A stretch of DNA of 64,000 nucleotides from an uncultured virus (IMG/VR IMGVR_UViG_2061766007_003336) (Duplodnaviria > Heunggongvirae > Uroviricota > Caudoviricetes), in the IMG/VR virus record IMGVR_UViG_2061766007_003336; one strand, written 5' to 3'. The translations under genes and the position numbers were made by a program. A model generated the notes under the pieces. The model did no database searches. It was not told the DNA's origin and saw only the letters and a program-made list of their open reading frames with translations. This document shows, one piece after another, positions 11,146 through 61,087 of the stretch (positions within the stretch are counted from its first letter, which is position 1; each line of letters starts with the position of its first letter).

Positions 11146-11155
11146 GGAGGATCCT

Positions 11156-35039: not shown

Positions 35040-35825
35040 ATGAGTTACGTTTCACGTGATCTTTTTCTTATGAACATCGATAAACTTGCTGCAAGTGCTC
35101 TCGAAGGTGCTGAAGAGTTCGGCAGAGGCGTAGGTGAGTACTGGGGAAACCAGGCACAGAGTGTTGCCGACAGCATCAGTCAGGGAGCAGCACGCGGTAA
35201 GGCTAAACGCAGCCAGATCAAACAGATGGCTGCAGCCAACAGAGCGGGAAGATCCAGAAACACGGATCCGCTTGGCGGAGAATATGCTGTCAATCTTACC
35301 AACGGTGCAAGAAATGCAGCTAACAAAGGTATCGGCGCAGTAGCTCGCGGTATGGATGCGCTGAACAGCGGTATAACCGGTGGTCTTAACGCGGCAGGCC
35401 GTGGAATAGCTTCCGCAGGACGTGCGGTAAGCGCCTGGGGCGACAGAACCGGACAAAAGATCTCACAGGCACGCAGAGACGTGTCAAATGCGGCTTACGG
35501 CGGACTTAACGCTGCCAGAGAGAGCATAAACAATGCTGCAAACAACATCGCATCGTCATGGAACAGAGGCGCAGACAGAAGAGCAGAAGTTCAGGCTGCA
35601 GCCGATGCCAACAGAGCTGCAAGAGTGACTGACAGAACTCCGCTTGGCGGAACATATGCTGAAGCCATTACTGACGGCGTAAGAAACGCAGGAAGATCTA
35701 TAGGCAACTGGTTCAGCAGTATCGGTGACGCGTGGAACAGAGGTGCCGAGAAACGTAACGCTGCTTTTGGAAAAGGTAAAGGCAAAGGCAACGGTGCAAA
35801 CGGCCAGTACTACGCAGGGCTTTAA
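35040..35825 (+). CDS. DKLA-leader Ala/Gly-rich protein with internal duplication
   Basis: MSYVSRDLFLMNIDKLA; two copies of ANRA...PLGGxYAxxxTxGxRNA. Confidence 0.85.
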   Translation: MSYVSRDLFLMNIDKLAASALEGAEEFGRGVGEYWGNQAQSVADSISQGAARGKAKRSQIKQMAAANRAGRSRNTDPLGGEYAVNLTNGARNAANKGIGAVARGMDALNSGITGGLNAAGRGIASAGRAVSAWGDRTGQKISQARRDVSNAAYGGLNAARESINNAANNIASSWNRGADRRAEVQAAADANRAARVTDRTPLGGTYAEAITDGVRNAGRSIGNWFSSIGDAWNRGAEKRNAAFGKGKGKGNGANGQYYAGL

Positions 35826-35840
35826 TTTCAGGAGGGAGTC

Positions 35841-36536
35841 ATGCCAGCAAGACCTTTGATAGATGATTATACCCGTGCACCAGAGTCCCCTCTGGCATTT
35901 AACTTTGATACGCATCCGATAATAACGCCAAGCATGGAAGCATGGTTGCTGCGGTTAGCCAAGAACCAGCCGCTTTTACGCCCTCCGCGTGAAGGGGTTG
36001 AGAAGAAAATGTTTTATGATTTTGTAAACGGAAAAATCGACGAGCGTAATCCTATTATAGTCGGAGGGGTCAGAGAGCGTAATATTCTTGATAGGAAATT
36101 AGGGGACTATAGGATCCCGGGAACAGACAGAGCCGTGTACGACTTCCTGTCAGAGGGATCAAAAGACGGGTCTGCCGTGGACCAGACGTCCCCTTATAGC
36201 GCAAGAGGCTATCTGGCAAATCAGTCGCTGAGGTCCATCGGCCGCAACGTCAAAAACTACTGGGGTGACGCATACAATACTTATGTAGCCCCTAAAGCGA
36301 AACAGTTTGCTGACACGGCCGGTAACTGGCTGAAGCAGAAAGCGAAGAGCTACGGATCGGATCTCGCGGTTGTCGGCGATGATCTTAAGAGCAGGGCGAA
36401 GAGCCTTTACGGAAACATGAGAGGCACCCTTCGTGACGCCCTTAACGACCTCAGCAGAGCATCAGATAACATTCAGACGGCTGCGGCGTCCAAAAAACCC
36501 GATACAAGCGGCAACAGCAGTCCTGACAGGAGGTAA
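35841..36536 (+). CDS. hypothetical protein in DKxA cluster (amphipathic helical C-terminus)
   Basis: AGGAGGG SD; 231 aa. Confidence 0.8.
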   Translation: MPARPLIDDYTRAPESPLAFNFDTHPIITPSMEAWLLRLAKNQPLLRPPREGVEKKMFYDFVNGKIDERNPIIVGGVRERNILDRKLGDYRIPGTDRAVYDFLSEGSKDGSAVDQTSPYSARGYLANQSLRSIGRNVKNYWGDAYNTYVAPKAKQFADTAGNWLKQKAKSYGSDLAVVGDDLKSRAKSLYGNMRGTLRDALNDLSRASDNIQTAAASKKPDTSGNSSPDRR

Positions 36537-36538
36537 TT

Positions 36539-37489
36539 ATGGAAAATTACGGTGTTTATGGTGATAAACTGGCCGGAGGTATCGGAGGAGCGGTAGGTAC
36601 AGCACTCAACGCTACCGATAAAGCCGTAGCCAAAGGTCTCAAGGCCGCCTTAGGCCGTCAGGCTGCAAAAGCATTCGACAGAATGAAACGCATGCCCGGC
36701 GAGGCGATAGGATGGGCTGCGCGAAAGACCGCTCCGGGACTTATAGTAGGAGCGGCAGGTCTTTATGCTCTCCCCGGTCTGGCGCCGGCACTCATGGGAG
36801 GCAGCAGAGGACAGAACATTAACATTGTGCTCCCTGATAGCATAGCACTTGCGAACAGTAAGCAGGCTGCGGCGGAGCTGCCGTGGCTCAGTACCTCAAG
36901 TAAGGAGGAAAATATGGGTAATATGTATAACAACGGGCAGGAGAGTTCCTATCTCCGCTACGTAAGTCTCGGAACCAAGCTTGGATCAGCAACAGCTCAG
37001 GATTGGCTTGAGGACTATATGTATGACAAGACAGCTTTCAGTATTAAACCTGCTCTTAATGTGTTGAAGCGCGGAGCAGGAAAGATCGGGCAGTTCATCG
37101 CCGACAGCAGAATGCCGGCACTTGCTAACAAGGCTGCCGGCGGGGCCATGATGAAACCCCGACAGACCAGCAAGATTATAAAAGGTATTCACAGCGGTAA
37201 GATAAGATCCGGAGAACTCGAGAGACTGCTCCGGGGTTTCCAGTCAGGAACAATCGATAGCAAGGCTTTGACGGAAGCTATAGGAAACAGTTTTTTCGGA
37301 AACCTGCTCCGCCAGCCCGCAGTTTCTGAAGCGGTAGGAGGCGGTATCGGCGCAGCATCCCAGGGACTTAAGCCCTGGCAGATAGCGACCGCGGCTGCAG
37401 CTGTTCCGGCCGTAGGGTACTTAGGCTATAAGGCTCACCAGGGATTCGGCGGTGACGACAAGCCCAAAGTTGAAGTTAACCATTATTAA
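36539..37489 (+). CDS. DKLA-leader protein with two hydrophobic Gly/Ala modules; internal in-frame start at 36914
   Basis: GDKLAG, SKQA, YDKTA motifs; AAGGAGG-N6-ATG inside the frame. Confidence 0.85.
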   Translation: MENYGVYGDKLAGGIGGAVGTALNATDKAVAKGLKAALGRQAAKAFDRMKRMPGEAIGWAARKTAPGLIVGAAGLYALPGLAPALMGGSRGQNINIVLPDSIALANSKQAAAELPWLSTSSKEENMGNMYNNGQESSYLRYVSLGTKLGSATAQDWLEDYMYDKTAFSIKPALNVLKRGAGKIGQFIADSRMPALANKAAGGAMMKPRQTSKIIKGIHSGKIRSGELERLLRGFQSGTIDSKALTEAIGNSFFGNLLRQPAVSEAVGGGIGAASQGLKPWQIATAAAAVPAVGYLGYKAHQGFGGDDKPKVEVNHY

Positions 37490-37517
37490 GATATGACGAG
37501 GCGAAGTACCGGCCGTG

Positions 37518-37546
37518 TTGACTTATATATGTAAAAATAATAAACT
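37518..37546 (+). promoter_or_regulatory. sigma70-like promoter
   Basis: TTGACT-N17-TAAACT upstream of 37589. Confidence 0.6.
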
Positions 37547-37588
37547 CTGCCGTATATATTCGTTTCTTTAAGCACATGGAGGTTTAGT

Positions 37589-38743
37589 ATGTTGAATTGG
37601 TACGACAAAATCGCCAGCGGCGTAGCTGCGGCGGATGAAGCGGCACAGGCTGCCGTTGCAGAACAGACTGCTGCTGAGAAACTACAGCAGGACATCGATC
37701 TCACTCAGGCGGTAGCTGCTGACGATAGCGTAACCACCGAAGAGAAGGTCGCAATTCTTGAAAACGAAGGCGTTGAGCCTGAGATCATTGAGGCTCTCAT
37801 CGACGCAGAAACTACAGATGCGGTTGCGGCATACTACGGTGTTAACCCGTACTGGCTTGCAGACAAAAAAGCATCCTGGCTTAATATTCTTCCGAATCAG
37901 GCAAGATTCGCTCTTGAAGATCCGGCAACCATGAGCCGTGTAGGAACGGCAGCTATGGGCGCAGGCCTAGGCGGACTCGCAGGTGCAGGCCTCGGTTACC
38001 TCGCCGGTGACGGTATGGGCGCAGCGATCGGCGGTCTTGCAGGCGCAGGACTCGGCGGTCTCGGCGGTTATTACCTGCCCGGTCTGTTCGGACAGGCTAA
38101 CAACGCAGCTGCAAACGCTATGGCTTCAGCAGCTCAGGACAGTCTCGTAAGAGACAGAGCCCTTTACTGGGACGGCATAACTCCAGGAATGTACGATGCA
38201 ATGGAGGCTAACGTGAAAGATATGAATGCAGCCAGGAGAGCAGCGGCAGAACTTCAGCACAAACAGGACGTGCTCAACCAGTACGGCGGTCTTCCGTCGG
38301 ATTCCGATGCTGCTATGGCGGCTCTTTTTGATCCTAATGTTACTTATTCGGACCAGCAGATGCTCGAACAGGCAGCACCCGATAAGACCAATTCATACCG
38401 TCTTGAGGACTCGAAATGGTTCCAGGACAAATGCGCAGGCCTTATCGACGGTGCAAGCCCGTGGGGACCGGTAAGAGAAGCTAAAGAATATCTTGCGGAT
38501 CCGGCTAACGCTGCTCTTGTAAGCAGACTCGGTATGGGCGCAGGCCTCGGCGGACTCGCAGGCGCAGGCCTCGGTTACCTCGCCGGTGACGGTATGGGCG
38601 CAGCGATCGGCGGTCTTGCAGGCGCAGGACTCGGCGGACTCGGTGCTTACTATGCTCCGGAACTGTTCCAGGCATACACTAACAATATTGTGTATCCGGC
38701 CGCGAATGACGTAGCAGCTGCCAACCTTGCAGAACTTTACTAA
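37589..38743 (+). CDS. DKIA-leader glycine-zipper protein (two zipper cassettes)
   Basis: WYDKIAS, ADKKAS, QDKCAG; GAGLGGLAGAGLGYLAGDGMGAAIGGLAGAGLGG twice. Confidence 0.85.
   Translation: MLNWYDKIASGVAAADEAAQAAVAEQTAAEKLQQDIDLTQAVAADDSVTTEEKVAILENEGVEPEIIEALIDAETTDAVAAYYGVNPYWLADKKASWLNILPNQARFALEDPATMSRVGTAAMGAGLGGLAGAGLGYLAGDGMGAAIGGLAGAGLGGLGGYYLPGLFGQANNAAANAMASAAQDSLVRDRALYWDGITPGMYDAMEANVKDMNAARRAAAELQHKQDVLNQYGGLPSDSDAAMAALFDPNVTYSDQQMLEQAAPDKTNSYRLEDSKWFQDKCAGLIDGASPWGPVREAKEYLADPANAALVSRLGMGAGLGGLAGAGLGYLAGDGMGAAIGGLAGAGLGGLGAYYAPELFQAYTNNIVYPAANDVAAANLAELY
37955..38059 (+). repeat. 105-bp glycine-zipper cassette copy 1
   Basis: near-identical to 38534-38638 and 39676-39780. Confidence 0.95.
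38534..38638 (+). repeat. 105-bp glycine-zipper cassette copy 2
   Basis: 3 substitutions vs copy 1 by eye. Confidence 0.95.
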
Positions 38744-38769
38744 CTTACACAATATATTGGAGGTTTAAC

Positions 38770-39855
38770 ATGTTAGATCAGAGATGGTATGACAAAATTG
38801 CCAGCGGCGTTGCTGCCGCAGAAGAAGCTCTTGCCAATGCAGCTGCAGACGAACAGGCTGCTGCTGTCGAGCAGGGTGCCGCAGAAAAACTTCAGCAGGA
38901 CATTGATCTTACTCAGGCGGTAGCTGCTGACGACAGTGTAACCACTGAAGAAAAAGTCGCTATCCTCGAGAACGAAGGCGTCGAGCCTGAGATCATCGAA
39001 GCTCTTATCGAGGCTGAAACGACTGATGCAGTCGCAGCTTACTACGGAATCAATCCGTACTGGCTTGCAGACAAACAGGCAAGCATGAGATATGACAAAA
39101 CGGCTGCGGTTGACCCCGGTCAGATGGCTGTTGATATCGACAACGCTACAGGCGGAAGAATGATGCCTGCAGGAATCGGCGGTGCGGCAGGTATGGGAGC
39201 AGGCGCACTCGGTGCGAAACTCCTTGGCAGAAAATTCCCGGCTCTTAAAGGCAAAGCAGGTCTTGCAGCTCTTGCTGGTGCAGGTCTTGGTGCAGGAATA
39301 GGTGCTTTTTATCCTGAAATCGTCAGAGGAACCGGCGATGCAGCTGTTTACCTTGACAATAACTACATCAGTAAGGTTCCGGGAGCCCTTGAACAGGCAG
39401 GCGACTACATCAACGCACGTCCGATTATCGGGCAGACTGCAAGAGACGCTGCTATCGGCATGGGTGCGGGTGCAGCAGCAGGTGCTGCAGGTGCTAAACT
39501 TCTTGGTAAATCCATGAGGCGTTTCGGCGGTATCGGAGCTCTTCTCGGTGCAGGCATCGGAGCAGCTGTTCCGAATGTTGCGGCATATTACCAGGATCAG
39601 CGCCAGGCAGAAGCGGCTGAGAGAGCTAAACAGCTCGCAGCTGTAGAGAGCGCTAAACGCCAGAGAAGAACTGCTATGGGCGCAGGCCTAGGCGGACTCG
39701 CAGGTGCAGGCTTCGGTTACCTCGCCGGTGACGGTATGGGCGCAGCGATCGGCGGTCTTGCAGGCGCAGGACTCGGCGGTGCCGGCGGCTACTTCGCTAA
39801 AAACATTGATGACTGGGCGAACAAGAACATCAATTTTCCGACAACAGTAGCTTAA
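38770..39855 (+). CDS. DKIA-leader glycine-zipper protein (paralog of 37589-38743; three zipper modules)
   Basis: shared acidic N-domain QQDIDLTQAVAADDSVTTEEKVAILENEGVEPEIIEALI; ADKQAS, YDKTAA. Confidence 0.85.
   Translation: MLDQRWYDKIASGVAAAEEALANAAADEQAAAVEQGAAEKLQQDIDLTQAVAADDSVTTEEKVAILENEGVEPEIIEALIEAETTDAVAAYYGINPYWLADKQASMRYDKTAAVDPGQMAVDIDNATGGRMMPAGIGGAAGMGAGALGAKLLGRKFPALKGKAGLAALAGAGLGAGIGAFYPEIVRGTGDAAVYLDNNYISKVPGALEQAGDYINARPIIGQTARDAAIGMGAGAAAGAAGAKLLGKSMRRFGGIGALLGAGIGAAVPNVAAYYQDQRQAEAAERAKQLAAVESAKRQRRTAMGAGLGGLAGAGFGYLAGDGMGAAIGGLAGAGLGGAGGYFAKNIDDWANKNINFPTTVA
39676..39780 (+). repeat. 105-bp glycine-zipper cassette copy 3
   Basis: 1 substitution vs copy 1 by eye. Confidence 0.95.
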
Positions 39856-39898
39856 TGTGATTTTCAGGGCTCTCTGCTGAAGTGTATGGAGGTAAAGT

Positions 39899-41623
39899 AT
39901 GGTTAATCCGTTTGTTCTTGAAGCCTTGCGTGCACATCAGCTCAGGGCCCTTTATTTATCCAGCCTCATCCAGCCTGACCTGGCAGGTAACACCGCTTAC
40001 CTGAATCCGGAGCTGTATACGATGAGGCTCCTTCCGCCGGTACTGCCTGAACCGTTGTTCCCAGGAGGGCTTCCTCCGCAGGCAGTACAGAGTCCTGAAT
40101 TGTTAGGACTCCAGGGCAATCCTGCCGTATATGTCAGGGGCGGGATCAATCCGGTCTTACCTATCAACAACATAGGAGTAGAACAGATGATGGCTCAGGG
40201 CTACTATCCTGCTCCGGGCAGAATGCTGCCGCCGCAGGTTCTGTATGACAAACAGTCAGCGCTTACCAAAGATGATATACTTCCTTACCTCGTGCCTGCT
40301 GCAGGAGCTACAGGTTTCGGAGCGGTGAGATTCGCCGCTTTACCTAAGGGCAGTCCGATGCGTTTAGGCAAGGCGGTTTTAGCAGCCGGTATCGGAGGCT
40401 TAGCCGGACACGGACTTTATAGTCTTATTAAGCCAGGTGCATCCCTTGCTCCCGATCCTGTTAGAATCCGCAATGCTCAGCTCGGTATCGACTCAGCACT
40501 TACAGGTGCAGGATTGGGAGGTCTTCTGGGCGCCGGACTAGGTTACGTTGCAGGCGGCTCACAGTCCGTGCTTCCATTTGCACTTACCGGTGCGGGCTTA
40601 GGCGGTATAGGCGGGTACAAGTATGCGCAGCACCGCGCATCTGTGCCTGAAAACATTCCGGCAAAGGACGTTCCGTCAGATATTCAGAATGCTGTTACCA
40701 AGCAGTCGGCCTACCGCAGGCCTTATATTCCTTATGCCGCACAGCCGGATAAAGTGGCCAGTCTTCTTTCGATAGCCCGCACTGCTGTCAAAGGTGTGGC
40801 TAGACTGTGGAAACCGGCTGAGCAGCTGGTCAGCAAGTCGAAATATCTTGGCACTTTAGATCGTATGGGAGCCGCAGCACCTACCTCGATCCTGGGTAAA
40901 GCAAAGAATTTCCTGTTCGGCAGAGGCATTGACCGTTTCGAGCGCCAGGCGATCGAGAATACTCTTAAAAACAGCAGTAAAGGTTTGAGTAAAACCCAGG
41001 TCAGAGGGTTCTGGGAGGCTACAGGTAAAGGTAAAGGTCTTGATACAGGGACCGTAGAGGGTATGCTTAACAGATTTAAAAGCGGCAACAGTAAGATCAA
41101 CAAGGCATTTAAGGGCGAACTTGAGACGTGGCGCAACAGCCGCATAGCCCCGGTAAGTGAAGCCGGTCAGGTTGTTGCCAACAGCGGTACTGCAGCTGCC
41201 GAAACCGGAACAATGCTTGCCAACGGCGCGAATAAAACCACAAAGATTCCTGGATACACCGGACCGTACAGCTTTAAGAAGCCGCAGATCGGAGGGTACA
41301 GCTTTGCAGAGCCCAGTAAAGGCAGCAGAATGTTCTTCAAAGGCACTCAGACAGCGCCTGTTTCCGGAGGCCAGGGTACGATGGATACCTTCATGGACCA
41401 GGCTCGTAAAGGCGCCGGTCACTGGTTTACCCACCCCATAGAAAATATTAAGGATATCGGCAGGATGTGGCAGAATGCCGGTAATGTGCCTCACGGCTAT
41501 GCTAAGGCGATCGGACACACAGTCGGAGCTGCAGCCGTCCCGTATGCCACCTACGCTTCCGTAAGCAAGTTTACGGAGCCGAATCACCGCGATAACGGTG
41601 GTTATCAGATCAATCATTTTTAA
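39899..41623 (+). CDS. modular glycine-zipper protein with Pro-rich N-terminus and basic C-terminal module
   Basis: YDKQSA, TKQSA, PDKVAS separate the modules; GAGLGGLLGAGLGYVAGG. Confidence 0.85.
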   Translation: MVNPFVLEALRAHQLRALYLSSLIQPDLAGNTAYLNPELYTMRLLPPVLPEPLFPGGLPPQAVQSPELLGLQGNPAVYVRGGINPVLPINNIGVEQMMAQGYYPAPGRMLPPQVLYDKQSALTKDDILPYLVPAAGATGFGAVRFAALPKGSPMRLGKAVLAAGIGGLAGHGLYSLIKPGASLAPDPVRIRNAQLGIDSALTGAGLGGLLGAGLGYVAGGSQSVLPFALTGAGLGGIGGYKYAQHRASVPENIPAKDVPSDIQNAVTKQSAYRRPYIPYAAQPDKVASLLSIARTAVKGVARLWKPAEQLVSKSKYLGTLDRMGAAAPTSILGKAKNFLFGRGIDRFERQAIENTLKNSSKGLSKTQVRGFWEATGKGKGLDTGTVEGMLNRFKSGNSKINKAFKGELETWRNSRIAPVSEAGQVVANSGTAAAETGTMLANGANKTTKIPGYTGPYSFKKPQIGGYSFAEPSKGSRMFFKGTQTAPVSGGQGTMDTFMDQARKGAGHWFTHPIENIKDIGRMWQNAGNVPHGYAKAIGHTVGAAAVPYATYASVSKFTEPNHRDNGGYQINHF

Positions 41624-41645
41624 TCTTCAAATACGGAGGTAGACT

Positions 41646-42038
41646 ATGAGCCAGGAATCAGCCCGAATTTTTTTAGACAAAATGCAGCAGAAGTTCGGTC
41701 CGGTTATCGACCGGAACATGGCTGACTATGCAGGAGCTGCAGAAACGTATGCGGATGCAATGCGGAATGCCGCAATGCAGGGCGGAGAGAACGCTAAACG
41801 CTTTGCGAAAGATGCGGAAGCATATGGCAGAGCCTGGCTCAACCATACATCGAGCCCTGATCAGCTGCGTATGAACACTGCGATAGGTGCCGGAATAGGC
41901 GGCCTTGCCGGGGCAGGGCTAGGCTATCTGGCAGGCGACGGAGCAGGAGCTCTCATCGGAGGTCTCGGCGGTACTGCACTAGGTGGTTACAGCGGCTACA
42001 ATATTAACAATATCCGGGCAGCGCTCGGCCTGTTATAG
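41646..42038 (+). CDS. glycine-zipper protein
   Basis: MSQESARIFLDK leader; GAGIGGLAGAGLGYLAGDGAGALIGGLGG. Confidence 0.85.
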   Translation: MSQESARIFLDKMQQKFGPVIDRNMADYAGAAETYADAMRNAAMQGGENAKRFAKDAEAYGRAWLNHTSSPDQLRMNTAIGAGIGGLAGAGLGYLAGDGAGALIGGLGGTALGGYSGYNINNIRAALGLL

Positions 42039-42053
42039 ACCTAAGGGTGGATT

Positions 42054-42569
42054 ATGAGCAAAATCTCTCAGGCGTTATTTTTGGATAAAATAGCAGTGAT
42101 TGAAGAAACCCTGCCGTTAATCTCTGCTGTATTACAGGTAAATAACAATGTTAATAACTTTCCAATGCTAGCCGAAATCAAACGCAAACAACTGGTGAAG
42201 TCCGATAAAAGTCTCTCATACGATGAGAGTAAGCGGAGAACGCACGGCGCTGCGTTAGCCGGAGGACTTGGCGGAACTTTTGCCGGAGGGCTTTTGGGCG
42301 CTCCGTTTGGAGTTCCCGGAATAGCTATAGGGAGTCTTGTTGGGAACCTAGCCGGTTCGTTTACCGGGTTGTATGCAGGAGCAGCTGGCAACGGAGCACA
42401 GCATATCTTTCCTACTTTAGGTGGTGCGGCTGCAGGGGCAGGTCTAGGGGCGTTGCTTAGCGAGCAACTTAGTCACGGTGATGATAAAGTTTTCAAGGCT
42501 GGTATAGGCCTTGGGGCAGTAGGCGGAGGCCTTACAGGTTATTTGTTATCAAAACATTTTGCAGAATAG
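42054..42569 (+). CDS. DKIA-leader glycine-zipper protein
   Basis: MSKISQALFLDKIA; four GxxxG-rich helices. Confidence 0.85.
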   Translation: MSKISQALFLDKIAVIEETLPLISAVLQVNNNVNNFPMLAEIKRKQLVKSDKSLSYDESKRRTHGAALAGGLGGTFAGGLLGAPFGVPGIAIGSLVGNLAGSFTGLYAGAAGNGAQHIFPTLGGAAAGAGLGALLSEQLSHGDDKVFKAGIGLGAVGGGLTGYLLSKHFAE

Positions 42570-42580
42570 GAGATCTTACT

Positions 42581-43264
42581 ATGAGCGAAACATCAAGAAA
42601 CATTTTTATGGACATCATTAACGACAAACTTGCAGCGGGACAGATCCCTTCGGCCGGCAGCCCTGCAGGGAATGACTTTCTTGACTCTAAACCGTCAGGC
42701 GCCGGATTAGGCGGTGTTGCCGGATACGGCATGCAAGGTGGACGATCTTTCGACTTTAATAGTGCTGAGTGGCAACGGATGTCTGTGGAAGACAGAGTTA
42801 AAGCTCTTGACCCCCAGGATGATCGTCCTGTTATTCGGCGCAAGCCTGGAGCCTGGAAAAAGCACAAAGGCGGTCCTGCCGTCAACCCGAGAAAAAGAGG
42901 GGGTTCCTGGAGGTCGCCAAAAAGTTGGAATGACTTTTATGAAAGTGATATGCTGCTGGATGATCCGGTCTGGGCAACTGAGACAGATTCACTTGCATCC
43001 TACGCTGGCCCTGATCTTCTGCGGTTTTGTGATAAAACTGCGGAGTCTCAGATTGTAGACGACGAACTCGAGAAAGCCTACCGTATGCGTGACGAGGCCC
43101 TCAGTGAGGCCAAAGTTCCGTTTGCAAGGTATCTGTATAAGTCCTACCCCCAGAGTGCACCTATGGGCAATACCCATAACAAATGGCGTCAGGCACAGAA
43201 CATAATCAACAAAAAGCTCGGTTCGAAGAAGCATTATCTGACTTACGACGAGCTTGGTTACTAG
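42581..43264 (+). CDS. DKLA-leader protein
   Basis: MSETSRNIFMDIINDKLA; internal CDKTA; basic central segment. Confidence 0.8.
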   Translation: MSETSRNIFMDIINDKLAAGQIPSAGSPAGNDFLDSKPSGAGLGGVAGYGMQGGRSFDFNSAEWQRMSVEDRVKALDPQDDRPVIRRKPGAWKKHKGGPAVNPRKRGGSWRSPKSWNDFYESDMLLDDPVWATETDSLASYAGPDLLRFCDKTAESQIVDDELEKAYRMRDEALSEAKVPFARYLYKSYPQSAPMGNTHNKWRQAQNIINKKLGSKKHYLTYDELGY

Positions 43265-43274
43265 GGAGGTTAAC

Positions 43275-43547
43275 ATGAGTCAGGTTTCCGCAGATATTTT
43301 TATGAAAATCGTAACTGACAAACTCGCAGGTAGCACTATCACCGGTACCCTTGATTCTGGCGCAGAGTACGAGATTATCCCGGGTGAAGTACGTAGGATC
43401 GGTCTTGATGAGGGCAAGCCTCGCAGTCGAAGGCTTAGGAAAGCGAGCCCATGGAAACGCGGAGGGATTCTTAGAGGAGAACCTACACTGCGCCAAGGTC
43501 TAAACCATGTTGTACGGAAGGCGTTAGAAAACGGTACTGAGAACTAG
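43275..43547 (+). CDS. small basic DKLA-leader protein
   Basis: GGAGGT SD; MSQVSADIFMKIVTDKLA. Confidence 0.8.
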   Translation: MSQVSADIFMKIVTDKLAGSTITGTLDSGAEYEIIPGEVRRIGLDEGKPRSRRLRKASPWKRGGILRGEPTLRQGLNHVVRKALENGTEN

Positions 43548-43610
43548 ACCATTCGCGTTCACGCTATTGCAAAAAAAAAACAACGTAAGATTTTTCCGTA
43601 ACCGGTAATA

Positions 43611-45299
43611 TTAGAGCATAACATCCCCGGTCATATTGTTAGCCACACAGTATGAAATCCATGCAGCTATCATTGCCATAGCAATATCATTGCTTCTGCT
43701 TTTCTTGAGTACCCATAAAATTGCGCCGGGCTCGAATTTCGATGTGGCGCTTTTCATGCTCATCCAGCTGTCGACAACTTCGTTGAGCTGTTCCGTCGAA
43801 CTGGGAAGTTCAAGGCAGTGATCGAGAATTTTTTTCTTTATGAACCGGGAGATACTGAAATTGCGGTCAACGTCTACGCGGTAGTCCTTATCCTTAGGTT
43901 CAAGCAGCGCCGTAAGCTGGGCAAAGCGTACCGGAAGGACTGTCAGGTTCTGGTTGCGGGGGGCGAACTCTTCCCTCGCGATTTTGAAAATGTTTGAGTT
44001 CGCGTACGCACCTCCCATGAAGTCCGATCCTATGTGGGTTCCGTGCGGCAGCCTTCTAACCTTGGCAAGTACGTCGTCAATAGCCGCCTTGACATCGGGC
44101 AGCGGGTAAAGTTTATGGTACAGCAGACGCTGACGGATACGGTTGCCGTCAATGGTGAACAGATTGAGGGTGAATGCTGTGTGACTCTTACCAACCAGAT
44201 CACCGCCGTTCTGGTCATTGGCCCCGCCTCCCCAGTCGATTCCTACGACAAGTTTCTGGTTCGGAGTGAGTTTCGGCAGGCGCCTGAGGACATCCTCATA
44301 CCCGACAGAACTGTAAGTTAGATTCGAGACCTGGCAGGCGCGTACATCTTCCTCCCTGAGCATTGAACCAGCTGAACCCCTCGGAACACCAAGCTGCTCG
44401 GCGTAGAGCTTATTGTCATCGCGGTTCGGGGCATAAACCTTGTCTACCAGATCCTGATAGCGTATCGGGTTATAGACAACGCCGGGCATCATAAGTTTAT
44501 TGAAATGGATACCGAAAATAGGAGCGCCAGGGTTCATCGGGACGAACTTGCCTTCCCGGATGTCCACCGGCTTGAAACAGTGTGAGCACAGGACCGTTTC
44601 TTTTCCTACCTGACGGAGATCCATCAGTGTCGTGTATTTGTTGCAGTGATGGCATTTAACCACCATTGTGTGCTGTGATGTGGTATCATACAGTTTGCAC
44701 AGGTCATCATCCGGGTCGAGCGGCGTGCCCGTGTTGATGTCGATATGGTAGTCGGAGCTGTCGAGCATAGGATCAAGGACAGGGTTGATCAGATCAAGCA
44801 TCATGCTCTGCGACTCGTCCTTGATAAGCGCGTCAGCCGAGCCGCCGCGGACTCTCTCTACACCAGCTTCGTCGGCAGCATACCCGATTTTCATGGTAGC
44901 GCCGGTAGCGAAAGTCTTGATATGAACGTCGTTAGAGATCGATACCGCCTTCATATCCCTCGTTACGGCTATAGGACTCTTATTGGACAGCAGGAGTCTT
45001 TTCATGTTCGAGTTGACATTAAGGATCTTACCGAATTTGAGTTTGGAGAACTCGTCGGCCTGGTTCTGTGACGGAGCCATGTAAATGATACGGAACATGG
45101 GGATATGGGCCAGTTTCAGACAGTAGATGCAGTTGAAGATCGATTTCCCTACCTGACGTGACGTACGCATGACCATGCGCCTGATGTAAGGCATGTCTAT
45201 CAGCTCACGGTAATGGTAGTCGTTCCAGTTGATGGGTTTGCCGTCATCCAGCACGATCGATTTTTCGAAATAGTCGGATGCCGGCCCCGTATATCTCAT
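43611..45299 (-). CDS. terL: terminase large subunit (gpA-like)
   Basis: Walker A TSRQVGKS, Walker B GGSADALIKDE, motif III TGTP, Zn motif CHHC...CSHC, RNase H-like VGIDWG and C-terminal ND. Confidence 0.9.
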   Translation of the reverse strand: MRYTGPASDYFEKSIVLDDGKPINWNDYHYRELIDMPYIRRMVMRTSRQVGKSIFNCIYCLKLAHIPMFRIIYMAPSQNQADEFSKLKFGKILNVNSNMKRLLLSNKSPIAVTRDMKAVSISNDVHIKTFATGATMKIGYAADEAGVERVRGGSADALIKDESQSMMLDLINPVLDPMLDSSDYHIDINTGTPLDPDDDLCKLYDTTSQHTMVVKCHHCNKYTTLMDLRQVGKETVLCSHCFKPVDIREGKFVPMNPGAPIFGIHFNKLMMPGVVYNPIRYQDLVDKVYAPNRDDNKLYAEQLGVPRGSAGSMLREEDVRACQVSNLTYSSVGYEDVLRRLPKLTPNQKLVVGIDWGGGANDQNGGDLVGKSHTAFTLNLFTIDGNRIRQRLLYHKLYPLPDVKAAIDDVLAKVRRLPHGTHIGSDFMGGAYANSNIFKIAREEFAPRNQNLTVLPVRFAQLTALLEPKDKDYRVDVDRNFSISRFIKKKILDHCLELPSSTEQLNEVVDSWMSMKSATSKFEPGAILWVLKKSRSNDIAMAMIAAWISYCVANNMTGDVML

Positions 45300-45314
45300 G
45301 TGGTGCTCCGATGA

Positions 45315-46922
45315 TTAGTCGGTATAGTTGACGTCCTTGTCGTAGTTGGTTCCGATAACGTCGGACATATAACCGCCGAGACCGCCGATACCGGCTCCGG
45401 CGAGCGTGTATTTGGCGTAGTCGCCAAGATCGAATCCGAGATTGCCGAGTCTGTTGGCTGCCGTAGCGGCTACAAGACCGCCAAGTGCACCGTAGCCTGC
45501 TCCGATACCAGTGTTACGGATCATGTTGCTCTTTACATTGCGTTTGGTCTGGCCGATAAAATCGTTGATAGCCGAGTCACGACCTTTTTCCATGTCGGAT
45601 CTGAGCGCGTTGTGTGTGAGTGCGCCCAGACCGATACCACCGGCTACGTTCTGCGCCGACTGTACCATGGGCTGCGTTACGCTCTGGTTCATGCCTGCGA
45701 AACCGGTTGCCAGGAACGGCGCCGTCAGACCTATACCGATACCGGTCTGAATCGGATGCGTGACCATTTTATTGTAAGCTCTGCCGATAACACTCTGAGG
45801 ATCGTCTATTTCAGGAAGCGCTGCCGCGAGGCCCGCCGCTCCGAGAGCCGTGCCGCCGCCAAGAATAGCGTTGCCTTTAACCGGATTTTCATAGATCCAC
45901 TGTTTGGCAGCTCTGAGATAAGGGTTACCCAGCGCCTTATAAACGGCTTTAGCTTCCTCAACTGTTGTACCGTTAGGGCGAAAACCAGGAGTTCTGTTCA
46001 TAAGATCTGCAATATTATTCCAAACCGGTTTCCCCGATGCGTTGAAGAGGTTCTTTGTCGGGCCCATAAGTGCGGGGTTAACGACCCTCTGCCCGGCTTC
46101 AAAGATATTTTTTACACCGCTTTTAGGTGTTCTCAGTACCGCGTCGTTGATAAGCAGCCTGAGTCCTCTTTCTTTCATGCCTGCAGCAGTTTTGTCCTCC
46201 GCTGGTTCCTCGAAGTCTGCAGAACCGTCTTTTACTTTCTCCAGGAACGCAAGCGCATTGGAAGCTACTGCAAGTTTGGTAGCTTTTTCCATGTCTCCGG
46301 CAGCGATGGCTTTTTCGCCTTCCTTGCGGAGAAGTCTCTGGAAGTGAGTTTCTGAAGGATCGTGTACATAAGATGCAGTTTTTTCAAGGCACCAGTCGAG
46401 GGCCTTGGAAGCGGCAGTGATCACGTCGATTGTACTGTCGGTCTGGAAAGGTGTGACATTTTTCATATTCATGGCTACGCTTGCTCCTAATTTTTTGGGG
46501 TCAGTATAATTTGCATCCGCTACGGATGACTCAAACGAGTTGACGGGGTTTGCTGCAGGGGCGCCCACAGGCCGAGTGCTGGTTGTGCTCACTCCAGGCA
46601 CACTGGTTTCACTGGAGGTTTTCGTCCCCCACCGGTCGTAGACTACACCGTTAAGGTGTCTGAGACGCTGGTCATTATCAGCAGTCAAGGTTGGTGTTAC
46701 TTTACCGGTAGGCTGAGTCGGTGAAGCAGTACCTGTGGCAGACTCAATACTGTTGGTCCAGTCAGACTGTGAATTGTCACCGCCAGAATACAGACCCATG
46801 TTGACGTTATAGCCTTTACCGCTTTTCATCGGCGGTTTGCCTTCGCCGATTGCCGTCAGCGAAGCTGATGACGATGACGGATTGACCGCCAGTTTTGTAA
46901 ATTCAAGATACCTGCTTGTCAT
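45315..46922 (-). CDS. K-x-A motif protein with C-terminal glycine-zipper modules
   Basis: GGAGGT SD; MTSRYLEFTKLA, LEKTAS, EDKTAA; GIGAGYGALGG...AGAGIGGLGG; directly upstream of terL. Confidence 0.85.
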   Translation of the reverse strand: MTSRYLEFTKLAVNPSSSSASLTAIGEGKPPMKSGKGYNVNMGLYSGGDNSQSDWTNSIESATGTASPTQPTGKVTPTLTADNDQRLRHLNGVVYDRWGTKTSSETSVPGVSTTSTRPVGAPAANPVNSFESSVADANYTDPKKLGASVAMNMKNVTPFQTDSTIDVITAASKALDWCLEKTASYVHDPSETHFQRLLRKEGEKAIAAGDMEKATKLAVASNALAFLEKVKDGSADFEEPAEDKTAAGMKERGLRLLINDAVLRTPKSGVKNIFEAGQRVVNPALMGPTKNLFNASGKPVWNNIADLMNRTPGFRPNGTTVEEAKAVYKALGNPYLRAAKQWIYENPVKGNAILGGGTALGAAGLAAALPEIDDPQSVIGRAYNKMVTHPIQTGIGIGLTAPFLATGFAGMNQSVTQPMVQSAQNVAGGIGLGALTHNALRSDMEKGRDSAINDFIGQTKRNVKSNMIRNTGIGAGYGALGGLVAATAANRLGNLGFDLGDYAKYTLAGAGIGGLGGYMSDVIGTNYDKDVNYTD

Positions 46923-56872: not shown

Positions 56873-59800
56873 ATGAGTAACAGTACCAAACTGGCTTTTT
56901 TAACACAGGCGACCGAGGCGTATACTCCGTATCAGGGCACGGGAAGTTATGACGACCTGGTCAGGACAAAAATGGAGAGCCTGGTACGCGAAGCGTACCC
57001 CTGGCTCGGTGATTTTACGCTTGAGGTGGTTAACTCCGACAAAGACAAATCGTATGCGTGTGCCACAGGTACCCTGAGAGGATTTTCTTCCGGATATGCG
57101 GTAGAATTTCCCGTTTTCTATCTTGAAGGCGATATTATGGATATCCCGACGTTCGTTCTTCCTGACAGAGACCTCATGCTCCCGTTTGACGAATCGTTTT
57201 ACAAGGTCATTACTTCCACGTTGAACAACTCTGATGATCTCGGCCTTGTCCGCGAGAGAGAGGATTTGTCAGATGCACTCGTCAGTGCTCTGGCAGACAC
57301 TGACTATCACAATGTCAGCGAAGTCATTAAAATGGGCAGCTTTTCCAGAATAGCCTCCTTTATTCCGAGAAGGGTGCTGCGCTCCTACGCTAAGGTAGCA
57401 TGCAGCAAGTGCCCGGATCTTATAAGGGACTTCTACTCCGCTCTAAAGCTGTCCCAGGCACGCTCCTGCGTTAAAACCGCTGCCGCGTCCGATACCGCCA
57501 AGCTTACGTTCAATAAAGATGACAATGTTCCCATAAAGTCCCTTGTAACACCTGTTTTCCTTTCGGAAGCCGAGGCTAAGGAACTAGACAGTGACGGGAC
57601 GGAAACGAAGCTTATTAAAATCTGTGAAGACTGTTTTGTTCTTCCTGAGGCGAACAATAAAATCAACATGACCAACATGCCGACTGCAGAAGAAGTAGCA
57701 CGCTCCATGGGTCAGGATTTTGAATATCTGTCACCTGGTGAGTGGGCTAAACTTGCTGAACAGGAAATGCACAGCAAGCCGTTTGAGCCGTTCGTAAGCG
57801 TATGCCCGTCTTCTATGAGAGACTACTGGGTAGCTCCCCGAATCGATCCTGACGAGGACTCTGACAACTGGCGCATCCGTTGTGACGACGATTACGTAGC
57901 TGCTATGGATAACGAGCAGGCGCGTAAGATGTACGATCTTTCGAGAAACAATCTCGGCGGTGAGTATGCTACATTTGAGAAAGCCAACCGCAAGCCGTTT
58001 AACGCTTACGATTGTGAGACCTTTGACAGGGCGATGGTGTTCTATTTCCCGAAGCGTACAGAAAAGAGAATGTACCTCGCAGATATTCTCAGCCATCCTC
58101 TTTCTCTGTCCCACGATCTTAACAGTATCATTACGGGAAAAGGCAACTCTTCGATCCCGATCGCTACCGGCACAGGCAAATACGCTTTGGTATCCCTTGC
58201 AGCAGGCAGGGCCTACAATCTGAGGGAAAATCCCGGCAGCAGGTCCGTATCGTCAGGCAAAAACGGTACCACGGTCATCAACTATAAGGTCGGAAACGAT
58301 GTAGTTGTTAAGATTGTAGCCGATTCCAAGAGCGGTTATGTAAAAACTATTACTTATCGCGGGGATTATGCTCCTGAAGGAATGAGTGACTATGACGAGG
58401 ACCAGACCAAGTACGTTACTCTGGAGTTTAACGGTAAGATCAAAACATTTAATCCGTATGAGTTCGCCTGCGAACCAACAAACTATAACGGCTACCTGAC
58501 TCTTAAAGCTCTGGCAGAAGGCAGAAGAGACATTGTCATTGCACCTTACGGCCCGAGAAGCAGTTCAAGTACCTTTACCGGGTTCACGAGAGTCATGTTT
58601 GACGCACGCTATCTTAATAAGGATTTCGTTCTTAACGGACTCGGCAGGAAGGCCAACCTTACGATCGGCCTGCCGTGCACTGTTATTCAGGTCGGAAGAA
58701 ACGGGAAAACCGTTATCAATCTCCCGAAACCTGAAAAGAGCGAAGGTCCGAAGATGATAAAATATATGTATAAGGACCCGGAACAGGCGGTCAACGCTAT
58801 CGCTCACCTCGGTGTGGAGCCGGAAGATCTTGCGAAGGTATATTCCGATATCAAACAGGAAGCAGACCATCTTTCAGCTATCAACTCCAACGGTATGGGG
58901 AGCTTGTCGTATGTACTTACAGCCGCTGAGCCTGGGGCAGAACAGCAGGGCCTTGATACTGATTCTATTCTGCAGCAGGCTGCTGTGCTTCTCAGCAATA
59001 TCCAGCAGACGCAGGAGCAGATGAAATATGACCAGGAGCTTAGAGACCGCGCTCTTGAGACACATATGCAGCTTGTCGATGAGAAACTTCAGAATATAGA
59101 CCAGCTGCAGGAAGTTCTTGAACGCGCTATCGGAGCGGCGGCTGAAGAAGAGGTTCCGGCAGAGGCTGCACCGGTTGAGGAGCCTGCGGCAGAGGAAAGC
59201 GAAGGCGCAATGCCTCCGGAAGTTATCGAGACGCTTGTTTCTGCGGCACTCGATCCGTCAACGGCCGAAGCCAACGACATGGGACCTGAAGAAGTACAGA
59301 TCCTTCAGTCTGCAGCTCAGGGTGATGAGGAGGCAGCCGCACAGGCAGGCCTTACCGGGAAGGACTACGCTCTTTTCCTTCAGCTCTACCATGAGAATGC
59401 AGATCAGAATAATTATGCTGATCAGGCTGAACCTGCGGAAGGCGGGGAAGCGGACCAGCCTGAGGTCAAACAGGAAGACCTCCAGCAGCTTGCCGAGATC
59501 CTCTCTGATCCTAAAGCTGCAAAGCGTGATATGGATCCTGAAATGGTGGACAATCTGCTAAGAGCCGTTCTTGGCGATGAGTCAGCAGCGTCCGCGATCG
59601 GCATCACGGTCGATATTGCCAAACAGGCTGACGAGCTTGCCGACCAGCTTGCTGAGGCCAGAGTCAGGGAAGAAGAAGCGAAAGCTAAAGAAGACAATAT
59701 CAACACCCTTGCCCAGCTCCTCGTAGATCCTGAGGCGGCTAAAAAGGATGTAGGTGAGGATATGATTAACTCACTCATGGCAGCCGTGCAGGGCGACGAA

Positions 59801-61087
59801 GCAGCTGCAGAACAGATAAACATTACAGTTGCGGATGCTCAGGCAGCAGCGTTCAGAGCACAGCAGCAGATGCCCGCAGAGGCTCCTGCTGAAGCGGCAC
59901 CTGCACCCGAGGCAGTGCCTGACCAGGAAATAGCTCCTGCTGAGTCACAGACACAGGAAAGTGCTTCCGTAGAAGAGGCAGGTCAGCCTTCGGTCTCCGA
60001 CGAAGACATTGATACCCTCGCACAGATCATCCTTAATGAAGATGAAGCCCGCAAGCAGATGGGCGACGACATGGTCGACGCACTCGGCAAGGCCGTTGAA
60101 GGTGACGAAGCTGCAGCAGCTAAGATAGGTATCACTGTCGCTGATGCAAAAGCCGCAGCACAGAAAGCTGTAGAGCTCAGCGAAGGCGGTGAGCAGCAGC
60201 AGACGTCAGAAGCAGAAGGCCAGGCAGCAGAGGACCAGTCTGCAGGCAGCACTCTTACCGAGGAGGACAAGCAAGCGATAGCTGATATTCTTGCTGATCC
60301 TGAAGCCGCCAAGCAGAATTACGACCAGGCGGTTGTTGAGCAGATTCTTGCTGCAGCCAACGGGGATGAAGAAGCTGCAAAACAGCTCAATACTACAGTT
60401 GAAGAGATCCAGGCGATAGCTCAGAACGTTCAGCCTGCTCAGGGCGGCGGGGAAGAGCAGCAGCAGGCTCCGCAGACTCCTCAGGAAGCAGAGCAGATGC
60501 TTAGAGATAATTTTGACCATGCACGTCAGCTTGTTGAAGCTTATCTCGATCCGACTAAAGTTGAAGAATACGGTATTTCTGCTGATGAGCTCGGTACCGT
60601 TACTCTTGTTCTCAGATCCCCGGATATTGCAATAAGATCCGGCGTTCCGGGAGAGCAGGTACAGGCAATCTCTGATGCTTACAAAATGATTACCGGAAAA
60701 TCGGTTTACCAGAGCGCTGAACTTGAATTTGAAGGCGGAGCATCGGGCAGCCTTCCGGTGCCTGCACCCCAGCTTTCTTCACTTCAGACCGCGATACCGG
60801 TTAATAAGGCATTCGAAGAATATGCTAAGCCTCTTACCCAGACCTCGGCACTCCTCGATCTGCTTCCGAAGGTGAAAACGGCGAAGTTGTTCTTTAAGAA
60901 TGCAGATGCGTTCAGAGATATGCTCACTACACTCGGAGAGATCCTCATCAATCTTCAGCTTAACGCCGTGCATTACAAGGAATCTCTTGGCGGAGAGAGC
61001 TTTAAGAAGCTCCTTACCAGAGTCCGCAAGATGTATGAGGATTTCGGTACGACAGTGCTTGAAATGTACTCCTTAGATAAAGATTAA
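56873..61087 (+). CDS. large acidic K-x-A motif protein with six helical repeats (putative prohead core/scaffold-like)
   Basis: GGAGG SD before MSNSTKLA; repeats LxxxLxDPxxA...A..GDExAAxxIGITV; function inferred. Confidence 0.75.
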   Translation: MSNSTKLAFLTQATEAYTPYQGTGSYDDLVRTKMESLVREAYPWLGDFTLEVVNSDKDKSYACATGTLRGFSSGYAVEFPVFYLEGDIMDIPTFVLPDRDLMLPFDESFYKVITSTLNNSDDLGLVREREDLSDALVSALADTDYHNVSEVIKMGSFSRIASFIPRRVLRSYAKVACSKCPDLIRDFYSALKLSQARSCVKTAAASDTAKLTFNKDDNVPIKSLVTPVFLSEAEAKELDSDGTETKLIKICEDCFVLPEANNKINMTNMPTAEEVARSMGQDFEYLSPGEWAKLAEQEMHSKPFEPFVSVCPSSMRDYWVAPRIDPDEDSDNWRIRCDDDYVAAMDNEQARKMYDLSRNNLGGEYATFEKANRKPFNAYDCETFDRAMVFYFPKRTEKRMYLADILSHPLSLSHDLNSIITGKGNSSIPIATGTGKYALVSLAAGRAYNLRENPGSRSVSSGKNGTTVINYKVGNDVVVKIVADSKSGYVKTITYRGDYAPEGMSDYDEDQTKYVTLEFNGKIKTFNPYEFACEPTNYNGYLTLKALAEGRRDIVIAPYGPRSSSSTFTGFTRVMFDARYLNKDFVLNGLGRKANLTIGLPCTVIQVGRNGKTVINLPKPEKSEGPKMIKYMYKDPEQAVNAIAHLGVEPEDLAKVYSDIKQEADHLSAINSNGMGSLSYVLTAAEPGAEQQGLDTDSILQQAAVLLSNIQQTQEQMKYDQELRDRALETHMQLVDEKLQNIDQLQEVLERAIGAAAEEEVPAEAAPVEEPAAEESEGAMPPEVIETLVSAALDPSTAEANDMGPEEVQILQSAAQGDEEAAAQAGLTGKDYALFLQLYHENADQNNYADQAEPAEGGEADQPEVKQEDLQQLAEILSDPKAAKRDMDPEMVDNLLRAVLGDESAASAIGITVDIAKQADELADQLAEARVREEEAKAKEDNINTLAQLLVDPEAAKKDVGEDMINSLMAAVQGDEAAAEQINITVADAQAAAFRAQQQMPAEAPAEAAPAPEAVPDQEIAPAESQTQESASVEEAGQPSVSDEDIDTLAQIILNEDEARKQMGDDMVDALGKAVEGDEAAAAKIGITVADAKAAAQKAVELSEGGEQQQTSEAEGQAAEDQSAGSTLTEEDKQAIADILADPEAAKQNYDQAVVEQILAAANGDEEAAKQLNTTVEEIQAIAQNVQPAQGGGEEQQQAPQTPQEAEQMLRDNFDHARQLVEAYLDPTKVEEYGISADELGTVTLVLRSPDIAIRSGVPGEQVQAISDAYKMITGKSVYQSAELEFEGGASGSLPVPAPQLSSLQTAIPVNKAFEEYAKPLTQTSALLDLLPKVKTAKLFFKNADAFRDMLTTLGEILINLQLNAVHYKESLGGESFKKLLTRVRKMYEDFGTTVLEMYSLDKD

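Follow-up and report, generated by a model that had tools for sequence, protein, structure and literature searches.

Why does a tailed phage keep a run of small glycine- and alanine-rich genes next to its terminase gene, and what is the role of the short DK-x-A peptide motif that recurs in them? The question is raised by a 64,000-nt stretch of DNA from an uncultured tailed phage (hereafter the window), which contains the gene block together with the large terminase subunit gene terL and the portal gene, and whose genes nearly all lack a family name in Pfam and PHROGs scans. Ten consecutive open reading frames (ORFs) of at least 90 residues on the plus strand fill positions 35040-43547, no two neighbours being more than 99 bases apart, and converge with terL. 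A preliminary description of this DNA had counted nine such genes; its count was one short, and its statement that they are built of Gly/Ala-rich modules stands. These ten ORFs, the gene upstream of terL (45315-46922) and the gene at 61285-61890 are hereafter called the 12 genes (3494 residues in total, largely Gly/Ala-rich); they are listed in Table 1 and referred to by their lower coordinate. I consider it a little better than an even bet, from sequence comparison and by analogy with T4, that the proteins carrying the motif are capsid-targeted cargo of the T4 kind, cut after Lys-x-Ala by a gp21/assemblin-type protease of the phage itself.

The motif was assayed by its number and by its position. 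The 12 genes hold 17 copies of DKx[AS] (1.97 expected), a count reached by none of 2000 shuffles, while the other 68 called genes contain 7 occurrences against 9.4 expected, that is, no enrichment. The positional signal, which goes beyond the preliminary description, is stronger than the motif count: [DT]K[LIMV]A lies within the first 35 residues of 11 of the 80 called genes (0.3 expected; 0 of 1000 shuffles), and the stricter DK[LIVM]A of 10 (0.15 expected; 0 of 300 shuffles). In 13 window proteins the motif is found 5-30 residues from the start, and five of these 13 share a near-identical leader, MS-x-x-S-x-x-[IL]-F-[LM]-...-DK-[LI]-A. The codons of the tag vary synonymously between copies, which indicates that it is conserved, and selected, at the peptide level. 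Five of its carriers (the 1404-, 390-, 227- and 90-residue proteins and the 94-residue zinc-ribbon protein) are free of zippers, so that the tag is a general signal, separate from the zipper. A logo of 68 sites gives W/Y/P, L/Y/W/F, any residue, D, K, any residue and A (64 of 68), followed by A, S or G (52 of 68). The signal thus reads as aromatic/hydrophobic-x-(D)-K-x-A plus a small residue, and it recurs between the modules of the zipper proteins. All the examples of DK-x-A quoted in the preliminary description are present in the sequences. Its rule that modules often begin right after the motif holds at many joints and fails elsewhere: 41646 has DKMQ, 35841 has no site, and the hairpins within residues 113-361 of 38770 are not separated by one.

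The modules themselves are characterized by the GxxxGxxxG glycine zipper, which was counted 15 times in 37589, 12 in 38770, 10 in 42054, 9 in 61285, 8 in 41646, 6 in 39899, twice each in 35040 and 45315, once in 42581, and not at all in 36539, 35841 and 43254 (the ORF read here as 43275-43547). Eight of the 12 genes (36539, 37589, 38770, 39899, 41646, 42054, 45315 and 61285) contain uncharged Gly/Ala stretches 15-33 residues long, which often come in pairs with a single Asp between them; 35040 has neither a hydrophobic zipper nor an uncharged run. When 14 proteins were scanned against Pfam with the curated gathering cut-offs as the criterion, 37589 exceeded them for Gly-zipper_YMGG (PF13441; 30.2 against 28.9) and Gly-zipper_Omp (PF13488; 27.4 against 25), 38770 and 41646 matched both families below the cut-off, and the remaining zipper genes gave no match. 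Four copies of a 136-nt cassette (37954-38089, 38533-38668, 39675-39810 and 41882-42017) encode the hairpin. Two of them are 85-90% identical in DNA to the reference copy, far above the surrounding genes, and the fourth is 60% identical; this closeness suggests that the cassette was recently copied or gene-converted.

TerL relatives in the databases are between 94% and 34% identical and lie on contigs of up to 168,594 bases; terL proteins 84% identical are encoded on contigs of up to that size. A single-sequence scan of IMG/VR gave no close relative, and alignment scans gave two usable contigs only: G001 (64,483 bases; terL 59% identical; CheckV completeness 42%) and G002 (182,989 bases; terL 34% identical; CheckV completeness 88%), the latter encoding a fused beta-beta' RNA polymerase, a DNA polymerase and a ligase. 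By terL, the portal and the protease-like protein described below, the nearest cultured phages are Salmonella phage Arash and Vibrio phages D69, D181 and D148; Bacillus phage G is related through the protease-like protein only. On these sequence comparisons the window is part of a large uncultured tailed phage of ~170 kb, a distant kin of Arash, D69 and Bacillus phage G.

The pattern is repeated in these relatives. In G001 the zipper block (56750-64483, plus strand) begins ~3 kb downstream of portal-region genes on the same strand; the setting is thus that of a head module, convergent with terL in the window and near portal-region genes in G001. The gene position upstream of terL is occupied by zipper-rich genes in G001, G002 and the locus L035 as well; the G001 gene (1029 residues) contains 10 sites. 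Joints in G001 are highly regular, of the type GYNPY[MFV]DK[IV]AA (for instance GYNPYMDKIAA; also EYPYYNDKTAF). A database search with 38770 found 17 homologues, of which 14 were fetched and 13 belong to the window's lineage; each of these 13 has the motif both N-terminally and where the acidic domain and the zipper modules join. Among 13 metagenome loci around terL relatives, whose neighbouring genes are visible only in the longer ones, these longer loci show the pattern again: L024 and L028 have MS...DKLA leaders (in L028 on two of three small genes, the third having a variant without DK-x-A), and L027 is G001 itself.

The flavour of the tag, in turn, is lineage-specific. DK[LIVM]A is found at the N-termini of 10 of 80 window genes, 4 of 100 G001 genes and none of 213 G002 genes; conversely, KYA is absent from N-termini in the window and in G001 and present in 13 of 213 in G002, where 1.32 are expected. 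The N-terminal tag of G002 is L-[LVN]-K-Y-A and its internal joints are [ML]-L-x-K-x-A-[AG]; the G002-type protein P0044 has LNKYA at its start and also at three internal joints, and the zipper gene upstream of terL in L035 starts with MMSLLKYA. The change is also visible in a pair of orthologues, since the 1404-residue window protein starts with MSNSTKLAF and its 1212-residue G002 counterpart with MSERVAMMKKIAE. Across lineages the constant core of the tag, as read from these sequences, is K-x-A plus a small residue. That N-terminal and internal copies shift together between lineages argues for one reader of both. The comparison therefore supports the view that K-x-A behaves as a single recognition signal, placed at N-termini, at joints and on zipper-free proteins, kept in relatives and varying in flavour with the lineage.

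A candidate for this reader is encoded by the relatives. The 235-residue product of G002:124220-124927 weakly matches phrog_18299 'head maturation protease' (6.7e-6), and a homologue of 251 residues (phmmer 3.9e-30) lies at G001:57621-58376, inside the G001 zipper block. In the family of 16 sequences to which these belong, His113 and Ser164 are invariant (16 of 16) and a Cys/His cluster is present; 15 of the 16 bear a tag of their own, DK[LIV]A[AS], near residue 30, and 10 match phrog_18299 (best E 2.3e-6). In a Foldseek search of the PDB with an AlphaFold model of the 251-residue protein, every match listed through rank 50 was a herpesvirus protease, at the weak E values of 0.04-1, and VIA aligned the model with the varicella-zoster virus (VZV) protease (Z 5.6, 108 residues aligned) and T4 gp21 (5jbl; Z 5.5, 121 residues aligned). 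Against BFVD the best match had E 2e-9, gp19 of Bacillus phage G followed at 2.3e-8, and entries named 'Prohead protease' appeared from rank 10. From sequence and model together, the 251-residue protein is probably a head protease of the gp21/assemblin type. A survey of related genomes had been proposed as a check on the preliminary description; it placed a candidate head protease in the zipper block of G001 and none in the window. Two neighbours of the G002 protease gene, of 384 and 316 residues, were considered as capsid or scaffold proteins and dropped, there being no PDB sequence match. The 328-residue gene at 33861-34847 (minus strand) was likewise rejected as a protease: it lies in a place equivalent to that of the protease-like gene of G002, yet shows no similarity to it, and has no PDB sequence match. 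The adjacent plus-strand gene 26918-33817 encodes a 2299-residue protein that matches no family and nothing in 50,697 phage records; its homologue in G002, of 2306 residues, adjoins the protease-like gene of that contig.

Phage Arash offers a view of the corresponding proteins in virions. The protease-like domain resides in Arash gp222 (27% identity, 7e-9), which contains TKQAAAA at residues 29-35. K-x-A-[ASG] sites number 7 in gp220, 6 in gp223, 5 in gp225 and 2 each in gp221 and gp224, and LVKEAG stands at residues 25-30 of gp226, the major capsid protein. Gp213, gp221 and gp224 contain Gly/Ala uncharged runs and have no Pfam match. According to the available text of the Arash study, liquid chromatography-mass spectrometry of purified virions detected Gp213 and Gp220-226, with a coverage of 86.6% for Gp226 and of 100% for Gp221, Gp223 and Gp224 (PMC10585845). 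These figures look loose, some proteins being given 100% coverage from 2 peptides. The paper names no mass-spectrometry deposit. As far as this text goes, the Arash data support a virion location for the K-x-A-rich head-region proteins of a distant relative; they show no cut. In Bacillus phage G tag-like sites are fewer: 4 in gp19, 2 near the N-terminus of the portal gp14 and 0 in the capsid protein.

According to the reading favoured here, the leader would be the counterpart of the T4 capsid-targeting sequence and would carry the protein into the prohead core, where the phage's own serine protease of gp21/assemblin fold would cut it, most likely after Ala (P3 = Lys, P1 = Ala). Cutting would remove the leaders and the acidic pro-domains, and would break up the longer precursors, yielding pieces of ~70 to 290 residues, many of them holding a two-helix glycine-zipper hairpin and others strongly basic. 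Were every site in the window cut, the predicted products would be leaders of 9-28 residues, acidic pro-domains of 86 and 93 residues with charges of -15 and -18, and remaining products of 72-289 residues that either bear zippers or are basic (up to +20). The counts, placement, conservation and lineage-bound flavour of the motif, the zipper modules and the head-module setting are seen in the sequences themselves; targeting by the tag, cleavage and the exact scissile bond are what I infer by analogy with known head proteins. Such products would remain packaged beside the DNA until infection, when they would exit the head together with it, and the zipper hairpins might then enter the host membrane and form a conduit or a depolarising pore there. 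Given the zipper family, insertion into a membrane once ejected is plausible; ejection and membrane action of these products are speculative. The full proposal is that this clade fills its capsids with protease-released zipper hairpins, made from polyproteins by a cut-after-Lys-x-Ala rule, that are ejected with the DNA and form a DNA conduit or depolarising pore in the cytoplasmic membrane, and so would be the phage equivalent of type VI effectors that form pores; I put it forward tentatively, as a possibility that I rate well short of even.

The T4 gp21 cleavage signal is L/I-x-E, and the signal found here is K-x-A; no Glu-type cut signal was seen at the 68 sites, in which the conserved residue and its small neighbour are those given above. 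The T4 internal proteins (IPI-III, Alt, gp67 and gp68) similarly have a short N-terminal tag of ~10-30 residues that is common to unrelated proteins and has a P3-x-P1 ending, the available text describing a 10-residue capsid-targeting sequence that is cut by gp21, a gp21 site near the N-terminus of gp21 itself, and a cargo that includes small basic proteins (PMC9026906). What differs from T4, besides the signal, is that sites here recur in long precursors, that zipper hairpins dominate, and that the system is known from sequence alone. Large phages of the phiKZ/SPN3US type (proteases gp175/gp245) provide the parallel for many head-internal proteins, N-terminal propeptides and multiple cuts per precursor: SPN3US gp245 is described as cutting after A-x-E, removing N-terminal propeptides and cutting gp53 several times (PMC10052503). 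That protease is of A-x-E type, no sequence relationship was found between its cargo and the proteins studied here, and the available text reports no glycine-zipper cargo (PMC10052503). A further parallel is RNA polymerase, found in Arash virion preparations according to the part of the report at hand (PMC10585845) and encoded as a fused beta-beta' gene by G002. The G002 gene (L014:2816-8914) joins beta and beta' in one protein of 2032 residues (Pfam RNA_pol_Rpb2_6, 5.3e-48; RNA_pol_Rpb1_2, 2e-25).

Other systems share single traits with the one proposed. Herpesvirus assemblin, which by the weak matches above may share its fold family with the candidate protease, cuts after Ala before Ser, and Lys at P3 is not known to belong to its consensus; P1 would be the same, and its substrates, unlike those proposed for the candidate protease, are the scaffold and itself and not a cargo arsenal. 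The pseudorabies virus protease is described as ending at Ala225 in vivo, through cleavage at its release site (PMC4498786). For phage P1 DarB, the available text states that an N-terminal signal suffices for capsid entry and that the cargo is ejected (PMC9024508); unlike the cargo here, the Dar system has no motif common to many proteins and no polyprotein joints. Paired GxxxGxxxG helices are found in PF13441/PF13488 proteins and in pore-forming type VI effectors with glycine zippers, such as Tse4, which are delivered by a contractile injection machine. In contrast to both, the hairpins of the window are embedded in head-module precursors behind a protease-type tag. The preliminary description knew of no characterised system with this architecture, and literature searches agree, having returned nothing about virion cargo with glycine zippers and no description of a phage head protease that follows a Lys-x-Ala rule; a paper on Bacillus phage Bc431v3 contained nothing on cut sites. 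The logic is nonetheless that of the head-internal proteins known from T4 and phiKZ/SPN3US.

Could the tag be read without being cut? K-x-A might be a docking or assembly tag, in the form of a short helical element with affinity for the scaffold, the portal, the capsid interior or a chaperone, on proteins that stay full-length. Its enrichment, position and lineage flavour fit a binding motif equally well, Gp221, Gp223 and Gp224 of Arash are at 100% virion coverage in the text available (PMC10585845), and P1 DarB has an N-terminal capsid localisation signal, with no N-terminal processing result in the accessible part of that report (PMC9024508). I nevertheless think a docking tag rather unlikely, because repeats at the joints of unrelated modules, a small residue after the Ala (52 of 68) and a tag on the protease itself (15 of 16) are all typical of protease sites. 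The P3-x-P1 format, moreover, is that of T4 (L/I-x-E) and of SPN3US (A-x-E). Another possibility, which seems to me slightly less probable still, is that the zipper proteins act in the membrane of the infected cell, as holin-like proteins, in superinfection exclusion or as a prohead anchor, the aromatic DK-x-A being a membrane-interface element. The Pfam glycine-zipper families consist mostly, by family name, of envelope lipoproteins and membrane proteins, the Trp or Tyr before the motif is a residue common at membrane interfaces, and T4 proheads are reported, in the text available, to assemble on the membrane and to detach after gp21 cleavage (PMC9026906). However, the same tag is found on proteins without a hydrophobic segment and on the protease, no signal peptide or lipobox was found, and the genes lie in head and packaging modules; at least nine such genes would also be many for lysis or exclusion.

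Removal of the leaders by a host enzyme has a precedent in staphylococcal phage 80-alpha: there the capsid and scaffold proteins imitate the N-terminus of ribosomal L27, and host Prp cuts them. The short N-terminal leaders, with a hydrophobic stretch before a small residue, would suit it. Since the flavour of the tag tracks the phage lineage, the phage protease family bears the tag, the motif is unlike the L27 leader, and internal joint sites are not known from the 80-alpha case, I regard a host protease as improbable. Even less credit is due to the idea, raised in the preliminary description as the alternative, of leader-processed secreted toxins akin to bacteriocins or microcins. Gly/Ala-rich peptides behind a short leader do resemble class II microcins, but the leaders end in A plus A, S or G and not in Gly-Gly, no Peptidase_C39, ABC-transporter or immunity-like Pfam match was found among 71 window proteins scanned, and the tag is also on the 390-residue and 1404-residue proteins and on the protease, in the setting of a phage head module. 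It is equally improbable that these are tape-measure-like or other tail proteins. This could be suggested by 37589, whose Gly-rich part weakly resembles phrog_167, tail length tape measure (E 0.0019); the match is however limited to a low-complexity stretch, there are ten short genes and not one long gene, and the Arash major tail protein has zero K-x-A-[ASG] sites against up to 7 in head-region neighbours.

Several observations weigh against capsid cargo cut after Lys-x-Ala, the reading preferred here. Among the zipper proteins just one reaches the Pfam curated cut-offs, and the hairpins are only moderately hydrophobic (mean Kyte-Doolittle ~0.7-1.6). Many hairpins of the window are not individually flanked by sites, as in 38770, where residues 113-361 hold three of them, and the DKMQ of 41646 and the tagless 35841 depart from the rule. 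The model of the 251-residue candidate is poor (mean predicted local distance difference test, pLDDT, 56.4), its PDB fold matches are weak, with MCE domains tying at Z 5.0-5.5, and a profile of the protease family matched no protease among PDB sequences. No major capsid protein, which would be the most telling substrate, was recognised in this lineage. The 100% coverage of Arash proteins, if reliable, would mean that nothing is lost from virions; the available text thus gives no sign of cutting, and is yet compatible with retained pieces (PMC10585845). Finally, an hmmsearch of all six frames of the window for the candidate protease found no homologue (best E 0.92), so that the link between phage and protease rests on relatives; this absence is unsurprising because ~64 kb of ~170 kb is in hand. 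The protease-type shared signal and head-protein logic proposed in the preliminary description are accordingly supported by comparison, through the joints, the flavour and the tagged candidate protease of relatives, and not by a protease gene in the window.

New for this clade are the reciprocal flavour test, the tagged protease gene in the zipper block of a relative and the tie to the Arash virion proteome. If the reading is correct, Lys-x-Ala would define a second specificity class of gp21/assemblin-type phage head proteases beside x-x-Glu, and a rule readable from sequence that could predict head cargo in dark-matter phages. The precursors would be the first phage head polyproteins to yield membrane-type glycine-zipper hairpins, with a bearing on the open question of how large phages move DNA across the cytoplasmic membrane, and the tag, if portable, might load foreign proteins into capsids, like the T4 capsid-targeting sequence. 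With Arash, D69 and Bacillus phage G as cultured distant relatives, the cleavage rule can already be tested.

Table 1. Coordinates and properties of the zipper genes, other tagged genes and anchor genes of the window
Feature	Coordinates	Strand	Properties
Block gene 35040	35040..35825	+	261 residues, basic (+14), Gly/Ala/Asn-rich, also Arg-rich; leader MSYVSRDLFLMNIDKLAA; internal two-copy repeat (85-nt direct repeat D3)
Block gene 35841	35841..36536	+	231 residues; operon member with neither tag nor zipper
Block gene 36539	36539..37489	+	316 residues; leader GDKLAG at residue 9, internal YDKTAF at 163, two uncharged Gly/Ala runs
Block gene 37589	37589..38743	+	384-residue precursor: leader YDKIAS, acidic 86-residue domain, ADKKAS, zipper hairpin, QDKCAG, zipper hairpin
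Block gene 38770	38770..39855	+	361-residue paralogue of 37589: leader YDKIAS, acidic domain, ADKQAS and YDKTAA sites, three zipper hairpins
Block gene 39899	39899..41623	+	574 residues: Pro-rich N-terminus, YDKQSA (117), PDKVAS (284), one zipper hairpin, basic (+20) C-terminal part
Block gene 41646	41646..42038	+	130-residue minimal unit: leader MSQESARIFLDKMQ (Ala-less variant), one zipper hairpin
Block gene 42054	42054..42569	+	171 residues: leader MSKISQALFLDKIAV, three Gly-rich uncharged runs
Block gene 42581	42581..43264	+	227 residues: leader MSETSRNIFMDIINDKLAA, internal CDKTAE, essentially zipper-free; L028 homologue with same leader
Block gene 43275	43275..43547	+	90 residues from ATG at 43275; leader MSQVSADIFMKIVTDKLAG; zipper-free; L028 homologue begins at same Met
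Large terminase subunit, terL	43611-45299	-	Pfam GpA_ATPase 26.5 bits against cut-off 25.6; phrog_675 at 1e-29
Gene upstream of terL	45315..46922	-	535 residues from ATG at 46922; leader MTSRYLEFTKLAV; internal ATKLAV, EDKTAA; four Gly-rich uncharged runs in C-terminal half
Gene 61285	61285..61890	+	201 residues: leader ...RLTDKLAAG, four Gly-rich uncharged runs
1404-residue protein	56873..61087	+	tagged, zipper-free; acidic repeats in C-terminal half
Zinc-ribbon protein	61956..62240	+	94 residues, basic (+10); leader MPTILQAVLDKLAE
390-residue protein	62237..63409	+	all-helical; tag TTRDKLAG at residues 22-29
Portal protein, marker of head module	14349-16181	-	Arash counterpart is the annotated portal: 20% identity, 88% query coverage, E 3e-10

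Some of the tagged proteins and anchors of Table 1 call for further comment. The C-terminal half of the 1404-residue protein consists of about six to eight copies of an acidic unit of ~45 residues, of the type DPEAAKxDxGxDMxxxLxxAVxGDExAA, which gives it a scaffold-like look; the protein had no ESM Atlas match and no match in the 50,697 phage records. The 390-residue protein was considered as a fusion of protease and scaffold and dropped, since its confident model (pLDDT 89.8) is all-helical with no fold match: Foldseek against the PDB gave nothing at E <=0.001, and the best hit across VIA (Z 5.9) covered one helical sub-domain. The portal is conserved in G001 and G002, and its language-model look-alikes include portal clusters (0.93), a lead only. 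Its N-terminus, ...VDFYDKLCKS, nearly matches the tag, with Cys in place of Ala; the portals of G001 and G002 lack this near-match.

Among the other genes of the window, 18199-19344 (minus strand) encodes a TnpB/IS605 OrfB protein (OrfB_IS605 2.7e-22, Cas12f1-like_TNB 1e-19, HTH_OrfB_IS605 1e-15). It is located between genes for proteins of 227 and 584 residues, among the neighbours of the portal gene, and the G002 copy is 32% identical. TnpB gave no clue to the host, its matches in 185,579 genomes being only 35-45% identical and spread across many phyla; no tRNA genes were found in the window. Lar-like restriction-alleviation zinc-ribbon proteins are encoded at 7764-8141 and 11102-11581, both on the plus strand (Lar_restr_allev 28.9 and 26.5 bits; phrog_599), and 24686-25654 (minus strand) encodes a radical SAM protein (Pfam 2.7e-19) that has homologues in both G001 and G002. 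The products of three minus-strand genes, 23596-24144, 50436-51287 and 53310-53795, have a common N-terminal stretch, ...[YF]PVD[FL][YW]LL..., and look like a small paralogous family.

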